A DNA stretch of 64,000 nt. It comes from Candidatus Dojkabacteria bacterium (GTDB lineage Bacteria; Patescibacteriota; Dojkabacteria; SC72). The stretch spans positions 230,244-294,243 of the forward strand of contig JACPFP010000002.1 of the NCBI GenBank assembly GCA_016182915.1, read 5' to 3'. Below, in pieces: positions 44,861 to 45,840 of the stretch (positions within the stretch are counted from its first letter, which is position 1; each line of letters starts with the position of its first letter). The notes under the pieces are model-generated. The model did no database searches. It saw only the letters and a list, made by a program, of their open reading frames with translations, and was not told the DNA's origin. Made by a program: the position numbers and the translations under genes.

Positions 44861-44951
44861 GAGAGGTGCCTGAGTGGCCGAAAGGATCTCACTGCTAACG
44901 AGACGTAGGCTTTAAACCCTACCGCGGGTTCGAATCCCGCCCTCTCCGCCA
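44861..44951 (+). tRNA. tRNA-Ser (anticodon GCU) with long variable arm, CCA encoded
   Basis: GGAGAGGTGCCTGAGTGGCCGAAAGG...CTGCTAA loop...long extra arm...GGGTTCGAATCCCGCCCTCTCCGCCA. Confidence 0.8.
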
Positions 44952-44973
44952 TATATTCACGGTAGCGACAAGA
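44946..44973 (+). repeat. direct repeat copy 1: tRNA-Ser 3' end plus 22 nt (att-like)
   Basis: CCGCCATATATTCACGGTAGCGACAAGA. Repeated at 45746..45773 with one mismatch. Confidence 0.75.
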
Positions 44974-44982
44974 CCAAAACCA

Positions 44983-45672
44983 CTAAGTAAGATTCTGCTT
45001 ATATTCTTCAATATTCTGAGGAAGATTTTTAACACTTTTGCCCTTCAAATACTCTTTTAGAGTATTTCCAAACCTATCATTAATCCAATAATCGGGTATA
45101 TATAAAGAACATATCCAATCAACTAATTGTTCCGTTTCGTCATGGGACAGTTTATATTTACTCACAATCTCTTCACCAATTCCAATATGTACCATTTCAT
45201 GGATTAATGCTGTAGAAGCATTTCTAACAAGAGTATCGCCGACATCATCTATAACTAGCAAAATGGATCCCGTCTTTTCATTACAGTTTCCACCTACTCC
45301 GTACTTTGTAATGCTGATTTCATAAGTTGGAAATATTTTGAATCCCCAATTCAAACAATCAGAAACTATTTTTGAAAAAGCAGGATAAACATTTTTTATT
45401 TCATTCTCGAGTTTATTCTCACCTAAGTTATATGATATTGGGTTGTATATTTCATTTGAAAAAATAGAGGAAAGTTTATTTTTAATTCCTTTGGGAAAAC
45501 TTGGCGACATTACAGCAACTTCCATAAAGCGAACATCTTTAGGTAATATTGGATAATAACCATGTTCTCGATAGAAAGGCAGGCGAGAAATAACATTCCA
45601 AAGGTTAGAATACTCGATCTCTGGAGAAGTCGGCTTAATTTTAAGTTCAAATATCATATCTTGATTATACAC
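44983..45672 (-). CDS. HExxH zinc-metallopeptidase-like protein (SprT/ImmA-like motif), enclosed by the att-like repeats
   Basis: 229 aa with ...ALIHEMVHIGIGEE.... This is the only gene between the two direct repeats. Confidence 0.4.
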   Translation of the reverse strand: MYNQDMIFELKIKPTSPEIEYSNLWNVISRLPFYREHGYYPILPKDVRFMEVAVMSPSFPKGIKNKLSSIFSNEIYNPISYNLGENKLENEIKNVYPAFSKIVSDCLNWGFKIFPTYEISITKYGVGGNCNEKTGSILLVIDDVGDTLVRNASTALIHEMVHIGIGEEIVSKYKLSHDETEQLVDWICSLYIPDYWINDRFGNTLKEYLKGKSVKNLPQNIEEYKQNLT

Positions 45673-45745
45673 CTTTATACGGTCTCTTTTGTCTCACCTT
45701 AAGTATAATAATGTTGGGATATTGGGTTCAAGACCCGTATGTTCC

Positions 45746-45773
45746 GCCATATGTTCACGGTAGCGACAAGAAT
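45746..45773 (+). repeat. direct repeat copy 2 (att-like), preceded by a degenerate tRNA T-arm-like fragment
   Basis: CCGCCATATGTTCACGGTAGCGACAAGA. The 25 nt upstream (GGGTTCAAGACCCGTATGTT) resemble a tRNA T-stem/loop plus acceptor remnant. Confidence 0.7.
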
Positions 45774-45840
45774 ACTCCCTCCGTTGTATAATGACCACAG
45801 ATTATTACTTCTAACCTCAATTAGAGATAACATTAACAAA

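Follow-up and report, generated by a model that had tools for sequence, protein, structure and literature searches.

A tRNA-Ser(GCU)-linked slot in Dojkabacteria with att-like repeats and integrase-less, single-gene contents

What does it mean that the 3' end of a tRNA gene is found a second time some 800 nucleotides downstream, with a single gene and no integrase in between? The question is raised by a locus of Candidatus Dojkabacteria, which belongs to the Patescibacteria (candidate phyla radiation, CPR), bacteria with tiny genomes and few recognised mobile elements, whose routes of gene exchange are largely unknown. We analysed a stretch of 64,000 nucleotides (positions 230,244 to 294,243 of contig JACPFP010000002.1, assembly GCA_016182915.1; hereafter the window, whose numbering is used below), in which a tRNA-Ser(GCU) gene is followed by a small module bounded by two copies of a core sequence and carrying one gene, a predicted zincin metallopeptidase. 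The repeat has the anatomy of a pair of attachment (att) sites, it recurs around different cargo genes in other species, its distribution is discordant with host phylogeny, and no recombinase is encoded in cis. On balance, we consider it probable that sequential site-specific integration at tRNA-Ser(GCU) left an integrase-less module resembling a cis-mobilisable element (CIME); that the mechanism is site-specific, in which order the events took place and that mobilisation occurs in trans is what we infer from these observations.

The evidence begins with the repeat itself (Table 1). The 28-mer CCGCCATATATTCACGGTAGCGACAAGA at 44946-44973 recurs at 45744-45771, 798 bp apart, with one mismatch (A to G at 45753), and its first copy consists of the last 6 nt of tRNA-Ser (CCGCCA, with the CCA encoded) and 22 nt of trailer. 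With up to three mismatches allowed, none of 100 dinucleotide-preserving shuffles gave a match to the 28-mer (chance expectation 0). A repeat search extended the pair to 48 nt (44926-44973 and 45724-45771) at 81% identity. In the 20 nt located 5' of CCGCCA in copy 2, 12 positions match the true T-arm and acceptor strand in register (binomial p ~0.001-0.005); this degenerate T-arm, or pseudo-T-arm, is therefore real. An empty or excised site would join 44973 to 45772 and read tRNA, core, ATACTCCC. The initial annotation, made from the letters alone, had described a 28-bp direct repeat of the tRNA-Ser(GCU) 3' end with one mismatch, a degenerate T-arm-like fragment before the second copy and an att-like signature around a segment with one gene and no integrase; each of these descriptions is borne out, and the only gene between the copies is that of the zincin.

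The repeat might also be a local, lineage-specific accident, for instance if slippage had duplicated the 3' region of the tRNA in tandem, or an artefact of assembly, in either case without any relation to mobility. Short-read assemblies do often break inside tRNA-Ser(GCU). However, an independent Logan assembly of run SRR12113422 matches the window exactly over 44927-48019, and since two assemblers yield an identical sequence, the arrangement is not the mis-join of one of them. In addition, the same architecture and pseudo-T-arm are present in two other species from other samples, and the repeat has a chance expectation of 0. An accident or artefact is thus effectively refuted and in our view hardly credible.

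The same locus was compared in relatives, which are labelled here by L numbers (L002-L004 and L015, UBA2022-type; L016, DTUPAT1; L005, L017 and L018, WS6 GW2011_GWF2_39_15). The left flank, comprising HD, endonuclease IV, UvrD-like, type IV secretion system pilin and SpoIID genes, is syntenic across Dojkabacteria with tRNA-Ser(GCU) in the same place, and L002-L005, L012-L014, L025 and L026 all have this tRNA-Ser gene upstream of those for HD and endonuclease IV. Naive sites exist in L012, L013, L025 and L026, where the core is absent and the trailers are unrelated. In L005, L017 and L018 only the core is found, with 20 of 22 trailer positions and a non-coding block of ~100 nt, and no second copy was detected within 7.8 kb. 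The UBA2022-type genome presents the order tRNA, core, 100-nt block, a 174-aa open reading frame (ORF) of unknown function in the same direction as the tRNA, left arm, pseudo-T-arm and core. In DTUPAT1 the order is tRNA, core, block, a 123-aa NUDIX-like ORF in the opposite direction, pseudo-T-arm, core, 13 nt of the block and an Asp/Glu racemase gene. The cargo genes of the window, the UBA2022-type genome and L016 are mutually unrelated. An exact-pattern motif scan of 185,579 species, one genome per species, returned only three other Dojkabacteria species and, over the whole of each of these three genomes, only this tRNA locus; frequent occurrence of the 28-mer genome-wide, which the initial annotation had named as an argument against insertion, was therefore not observed.

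The ~100-nt block (CCCACCCACCTTC..GGAAGGCT..TTGGGATTGAGTTATTTCC..TTTCAAAATAA..) is conserved directly after the core in the three other species that carry it and is absent from the window. It corresponds to no Rfam family, no covariation was seen among its three sequences, and it may be an att arm or a small RNA. Contigs from several samples and assemblers start or end in or beside tRNA-Ser(GCU) (the end of L001; the starts of L006-L009, L017 and L024), as would be expected in assembly graphs from a shared tRNA with strain-variable sequence behind it. The genome of the window has no close relative among those compared: its best HD homologue is only 56% identical, and a single sample carries the locus. 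For the zincin and for the NUDIX protein the records come from one sample apiece, and they do not include the annotated HD protein.

Comparison of the copies between and within genomes speaks to their origin. Across the three species that carry the pair, the second copies (42-46 nt) are identical at 40/42, 40/42 and 41/42 positions (95-98%), the two values of 40/42 being those of the window against L003 and against L016, while each is only 81-86% identical to the first copy of its own genome (81% in the window); they are thus not the outcome of independent duplication and decay of each host's tRNA end. Judging by these identities, copy 2 belongs to a shared, horizontally spread sequence family. 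The enclosed segment had been proposed to be either a decayed remnant or a very small mobilisable cargo, and the first of these options has to be qualified, since the cross-species identity of copy 2 shows it to be more than a relic in decay. To the left of copy 2, another 50 nt (45674-45723) are common to the window and L003; by BLAST, window 45674-45767 aligns with L003 6941-6847 at 84% over 95 nt, and this left arm is absent from L016.

The 22-nt trailer is likewise acquired and not the native trailer of the tRNA, being missing in L012, L013, L025 and L026. Its identity to the window is 22/22 in L003 and L016, 20/22 in L005 and 8/22 in L013. In trees of endonuclease IV and of the UvrD-like protein, the window, L003 and L005 form one clade, joined by L013 in the endonuclease IV tree, and L016 falls in a distant clade with L012 as its sister. 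Compared with the UvrD-like protein of the window, those of its clade are 71-75% identical and that of L016 is 51% identical, and endonuclease IV is 67% identical between the window and L016. The tRNAs of the window and L016 are 84% identical (78% over the 5' 65 nt) and their trailers are identical throughout; the tRNA of L013 is 97% identical to that of the window, yet its trailer is unrelated. Because the trailer is better conserved than the tRNA between clades and is absent from sister lineages, horizontal spread explains it best, and core, block and pseudo-T-arm therefore belong to mobile DNA. As far as these comparisons indicate, the module ends (22-nt trailer core, ~100-nt block and pseudo-T-arm arm) do not stem from the host and constitute a horizontally spread att-type family among Dojkabacteria, always found at this tRNA.

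High conservation of copy 2 could also reflect selection on a functional RNA or regulatory element. Such an element might be a tRNA-like minihelix (GGGATAT / T-arm / ATGTTCC-GCCA) made from its own -10-like box, or a duplicated processing, terminator or promoter signal. The window and L003 possess a 7-nt 5' strand that pairs with the acceptor-like 3' strand, their sole difference (G to A) keeping the pair, and promoter-like hexamers overlap copy 2 on both strands, including GCGACA-18-TATAAT at 45763-45792. However, L016 has lost 5 of the 13 pairs, which destroys the 5' half of its helix, z-scores for folding are weak (-1.1 to -1.7), no covariation was seen and no Rfam family matches. Furthermore, the patchy, phylogeny-discordant distribution is unlike that of a housekeeping RNA signal. 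Promoter-like sites in the region are no more numerous than in shuffles, and the one upstream of the tRNA is a consensus match only. We regard a conserved RNA or regulatory signal as very improbable. A known RNA family for core or block was also considered and rejected: Rfam returned nothing of the kind at the gathering threshold on the window and, at E<=10 on L003, nothing besides the tRNA but a permuted-tmRNA hit of 16.6 bits, which is at chance level.

Between the copies, one substantial ORF alone is present, from 44983 to 45672 on the minus strand. The initial annotation had reported a 229-aa HExxH protein of SprT/ImmA-like type; the motif is present as HEMVH and the length of 229 aa holds for a GTG start, whereas the NCBI call (HYV12_01655, on a 315,585-bp contig of a Candidatus Dojkabacteria metagenome-assembled genome) begins with ATG at 45657 and gives 224 aa, and the SprT/ImmA-like label finds no support at the family level, as no SprT or ImmA-IrrE profile match was obtained. 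The end of the gene lies 9 nt beyond copy 1 and its start 17 nt short of the conserved arm of copy 2. The gene is no orphan: when 1.84 billion representatives were searched in full with HMMER, 437 homologues were found, the closest only 40-41% identical; the few named ones are hypothetical proteins from Desulfobacterium and other non-CPR bacteria, and four family members carry PDZ domains. An alignment of 61 members shows no variation at H153, H157 and E176 and at least 90% conservation at E154, from which the motif HExxH-X18-E follows. AlphaFold2 (AF2) with the alignment gave a predicted local distance difference test score (pLDDT) of 96.6, against an unusable 39.5 for the single sequence, and the protein combines HExxH and a conserved third-ligand Glu on a zincin fold, as gluzincins do.

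The cargo is thereby predicted to be an intact, stand-alone gluzincin-type or gluzincin-like metallopeptidase of an unnamed family. It matched nothing in Pfam, NCBIfam, PHROGs, PADLOC or the PDB sequences. It differs from M1-type gluzincins in its length of 224 aa, in the absence of the M1 N- and C-terminal domains and of a Pfam Peptidase_M1 match, and sequence identity in the structural alignments is 8-16%. Nothing ties its function to recombination. The gene looks foreign, because its GC content of 0.32 is the lowest of the 44 ORFs in the window (mean 0.385, standard deviation 0.028) and it has no relative in the other Dojkabacteria loci compared, in whose six-frame translations the family hidden Markov model (HMM) also detected no zincin remnants. 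The low identity of its closest homologue and the origin of the named ones in other phyla point the same way. A phage or plasmid origin was rejected: viral contigs gave 0 hits with core or pseudo-T-arm, and relatives of the zincin are absent from IMG/VR, INPHARED phages, PLSDB plasmids, PHROGs and PADLOC. A 17-mer from the block of the relatives, which the window lacks, gave 4 viral hits where roughly 7 were expected by chance (a rough estimate); the flanks of one hit were checked and were unrelated.

The UBA2022-type genome encodes a further HExxH protein, of 311 aa with the motif AHEATH (L003 5924-6859, plus strand in the locus), just outside copy 2, with its stop codon inside the core. It is not a detectable relative of the zincin, the pairwise E of 0.14 being confined to the surroundings of the motif and the family HMM giving no hit. 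Inside this ORF, 85 nt to the right of copy 2, there is a weak third T-arm-like fragment, GGTTCC...CCTCTGCCA (L003 6758-6784, minus strand), which may represent a tRNA end displaced much earlier or may have arisen by chance, the pattern having ~1 chance hit per 10 kb.

How could such a module have formed? Under sequential site-specific integration, a first element would have recombined with the tRNA 3' end of a naive site and left a core beside the tRNA. If the core is element-derived, that first crossover must fall within the tRNA 3' end; TCCGCCA and parts of the T-arm are common to the arm of the element and the tRNA. The resident site would subsequently have recombined with a second, small circular module, made up of an attP-like arm, a pseudo-T-arm, a core and one gene, resulting in the order tRNA, core 1, cargo, pseudo-T-arm, core 2 and older remnant, the last represented by the NUDIX gene in the window. 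Recombination would have been catalysed in trans by a tyrosine recombinase encoded elsewhere. Copy 2 (pseudo-T-arm, CCGCCA and core) would then be an attP-like junction, as formed by a second module entering an occupied site.

The details of the two copies fit an assignment of copy 2 to the older event. The single variable position of the core is A in copy 1 of all four species that carry the core, and G, A or T in copy 2. In L003 and L016 copy 1 is followed by the intact 100-nt block; what follows copy 2 is truncated in L003, internally degenerate in L016 and unrecognisable in the window. The window module has no block; it is probably crippled and now immobile, because its right-hand arm has been lost. 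The NUDIX gene, which does not occupy this position in L003, L005 or L016 and is unrelated to the cargo of L016, may be a remnant of an earlier insertion that started at core copy 2. The suggestion that the site was hit repeatedly therefore stands in a narrow sense, in that two core copies are present.

A number of observations weigh against sequential site-specific integration. The sample is small, the core being known from only four species and the pair from only three. Scans of species genomes, metagenomes and viral sequences revealed no autonomous parent, empty site or circular form: the metagenome scan with the core pattern recovered only the GW2011_GWF2_39_15 genome, and two viral-contig scans with core and pseudo-T-arm sequences gave 0 hits. 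No integrase or recombinase gene was found in the module or within ~8 kb of it in any of the four species. By inspection, no obvious inverted recombinase-binding arms surround a 6-8 nt spacer in the core. In addition, the older unit, which contains the NUDIX gene in the window and a 458-aa gene and a DUF2200 gene in L005, has no repeat at its right end, and the variable segment abuts the pentapeptide-repeat gene in both genomes. Apart from the weak L003 fragment, no further pseudo-T-arm copy was found to the right within 5/26 mismatches or by the T-arm...CCGCCA pattern, and an arm-type repeat search found no k-mers common to both arms beyond the core.

A second insert lies ~3 kb to the right of the site. 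A sharply bounded 46-nt direct repeat (48942-48987 and 51145-51190, 91% identity) brackets 2.2 kb (48988-51144) with three plus-strand genes, encoding a 118-aa protein of unknown function, a TrmB-like regulator and an aldo/keto reductase. The 5' coding end (..ILFSHGFGI..) of an alpha/beta-hydrolase-like ORF (51036-51818) forms the right copy, GC skew is locally inverted in the segment, and no integrase is present. This second integrase-less insert also counts against the favoured reading, as it hints at a general mechanism independent of a specific site.

Homologous recombination would be such a mechanism. Conserved flanks, on the left the tRNA with the core and on the right either the pseudo-T-arm with the core or a backbone gene, would serve as homology arms for allelic replacement of the intervening gene, or a circle with 30-50 nt of homology would enter by a Campbell-type single crossover and duplicate that homology as a direct repeat, and in neither case would a dedicated recombinase be needed. 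The absence of a recombinase in cis from all four species is in line with this, as is the unrelated repeat pair bracketing the three-gene insert. The direct abutment of the older unit on the conserved pentapeptide gene is explained no less well by homologous replacement than by site-specific integration, and single-gene replacements in a conserved backbone are common across 46-57 kb when the window is compared with L003 and L005. However, a repeat that is short (28-48 nt) and 81% identical overall is marginal for RecA-type recombination. Moreover, the pseudo-T-arm is unlike the T-arm of every host and is kept at 95-98% in distant clades, so that a common mobile source would still be required, and tRNA 3' ends, with a partial copy of the T-arm, are what tyrosine integrases classically target. 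Homologous recombination is, in our estimation, a serious but rather unlikely alternative.

Table 1. Features of the tRNA-Ser(GCU) locus and its surroundings (window coordinates unless a relative's locus is named)
Feature	Coordinates	Strand	Basis or remark
Promoter-like TTGATA-17-TATAAT just 5' of tRNA-Ser	44820-44848	+	Consensus scan, 11/12 positions
tRNA-Ser(GCU), intact, CCA encoded; left anchor of slot, putative integration target	44860-44951	+	ARAGORN; Rfam tRNA 53 bits; cloverleaf fold
Core copy 1, attL-like: CCGCCA and 22-nt trailer TATATTCACGGTAGCGACAAGA; repeat reaches left to 44926	44946-44973	+	
Cargo gene, 224-aa predicted zincin of unnamed family, HExxH-X18-E (H153, E154, H157, E176)	44983-45657	-	
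Left arm of copy 2, GTCTCTTTTGTCTCA...GGGATATT, common to UBA2022-type genome (L003)	45674-45723	+	
Copy 2, attR-like or attP-like junction: pseudo-T-arm GGGTTCAAGACCCGTATGTT then CCGCCATATGTTCACGGTAGCGACAAGA	45724-45771	+	
NUDIX hydrolase gene, fills rest of variable slot	45841-46287	+	Pfam NUDIX 1.8e-14
Pentapeptide-repeat gene, first conserved backbone gene to right, right limit of slot	46319-47164	-	
Xer-like tyrosine recombinase gene, 308 aa	24275-25201	+	Pfam Phage_integrase 3e-27 and SAM_1; 20 kb from site
~100-nt block, L003	7821-7720	-	
~100-nt block, L005	7822-7725	-	
~100-nt block, L016	4587-4665	+	

Concerning the neighbourhood, HD, endonuclease IV and UvrD/PD-(D/E)XK genes lie to the left of tRNA-Ser, and NUDIX, pentapeptide, PadR and beta-lactamase-fold genes, followed by several small enzymes, lie to the right. 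The variable slot beside the tRNA comprises only 44952-46318 in the window. The pentapeptide gene that limits it is 78% identical over 281 aa to L005 4838-5683, with the same PadR neighbour and orientation. Further to the right (46319-57162), the backbone genes for pentapeptide-PadR, HMUDK_hel, GDSL lipase and HAD are found again, in the same order and orientation, in L005, L003 or both, and the region is a mosaic in which lineage-specific single genes are swapped between them; for example, the window has a PNPOx-like gene where L003 has heliorhodopsin. Everything up to about 57.2 kb had been taken for accessory, a view that can be kept for the interspersed lineage-specific genes and has to be dropped for the backbone genes that recur in relatives.

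Among 30 window ORFs scanned, the only recombinase is the Xer-like protein, which in NCBIfam scores best against XerC, XerD and XerA, in each case below the equivalog cut-off. This protein is a candidate for the trans-acting enzyme, and nothing ties it to the tRNA-Ser site. A more specific proposal is that of a minimal gene-cassette system, in which an attP-like region of ~150-250 nt (arm, pseudo-T-arm, core and 100-nt block) with a single gene would move between lineages into tRNA-Ser(GCU), with a tyrosine recombinase of the chromosome, possibly the Xer-like one, acting in trans; we put this forward tentatively and consider it improbable. Elsewhere in the window, a tRNA-Ile with anticodon UAU (gene TAT; 26549-26625, minus strand) represents an uncommon bacterial way of reading AUA, and the 23S rRNA match at 10626-13762 (minus strand) measures 3137 nt against a 2925-nt model, which implies ~200 nt of insertions.

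Two further classes of element that use a recombinase outside the unit were considered and rejected. The first is that of elements at dif, that is, integrative mobile elements exploiting Xer (IMEX): the site is a tRNA 3' end and not the dif site near the replication terminus, cumulative GC skew is monotonic in the window without a switch, and inspection of the core showed no dyad of the kind seen in a 28-bp dif-like site with two 11-bp inverted arms and a 6-bp spacer. The second is that of integron cassettes. No IntI, attI or Pc adjoins the module, whose neighbours are HD, endonuclease IV and NUDIX genes, the Xer-like gene is 20 kb away, and the hairpin at copy 2 is too weak (z -1.1 to -1.7) and, in L016, too broken for an attC site. 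The likeness to integron cassettes lies in the unit of one promoterless-sized gene and a recombination site, in the recombinase being outside the unit and in slot contents that vary by genome; here, however, there are at most two units and no array, and the anchor is a tRNA gene.

Among tRNA-associated elements, islands are described in two sources as an intact tRNA followed by a displaced 3' fragment in direct orientation (PMC4383910; bioRxiv 10.1101/2020.12.28.424599). Of the parts named in the Islander definition, the locus possesses the intact tRNA/tmRNA gene at one end (tRNA-Ser(GCU), 44860-44951) and the displaced tRNA 3' direct repeat at the other (48 nt, 81%, T-arm 12/20), and it lacks an integrase inside the island, the zincin gene being the only gene there. 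It also resembles Islander-type islands and prophages in its foreign cargo of deviant GC and in the reuse of the site across lineages. In contrast to such islands, which usually span several kb or more, the module is 0.5-1 kb with one gene and no integrase, the repeat runs at least 22 nt past the tRNA, and the partial copy is conserved between species instead of decaying.

CIMEs are established as integrase-less derivatives that keep both att sites, as in the ICESt1-related elements of Streptococcus (PMC5704250). The window module shares this state, as attL- and attR-like sites are retained with no integration or transfer genes between them, and two successive events fit it. It differs in that no related integrative and conjugative element (ICE), integrative and mobilisable element (IME) or autonomous parent is known, in its scale and in its host phylum, Patescibacteria; moreover, a different single-gene cargo in each species suggests more than the decay of one ancestor. 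Tandem accretion with the newest element beside the tRNA has been documented elsewhere (PMC5704250; bioRxiv 10.1101/2020.12.28.424599). The tycheposons of Prochlorococcus offer a parallel in streamlined genomes, with variable islands beside tRNA genes, incoming elements that push older ones inward, partial tRNAs and remnants (bioRxiv 10.1101/2020.12.28.424599). Tycheposons, however, encode a recombinase of the tyrosine or serine type, as a rule along with a replication module, and measure from several kb to >10 kb, while neither recombinase nor replication genes are present here. The locus thus behaves as a CIME or a genomic islet would at a tRNA hot spot for integration and is one of a small family of integrase-less single-gene modules.

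For Dojkabacteria, the locus represents a repeatedly used entry point: a tRNA-linked slot whose boundaries vary less between distant lineages than the tRNA does, which holds a different single gene in each genome and has no recombinase of its own. The 42-nt motif of the second copy offers a practical probe for further cargo genes in metagenomes. If homologous recombination is responsible, short conserved non-coding anchors would drive single-gene turnover in streamlined genomes. A cassette system, if true, would be a functional analogue of integron cassettes docking at a tRNA gene, in a phylum whose mobile elements are barely known. If the site-specific reading that we favour is true, no class of integrative module described at a tRNA gene would be smaller than these, and an undiscovered trans-acting recombinase would be implied.

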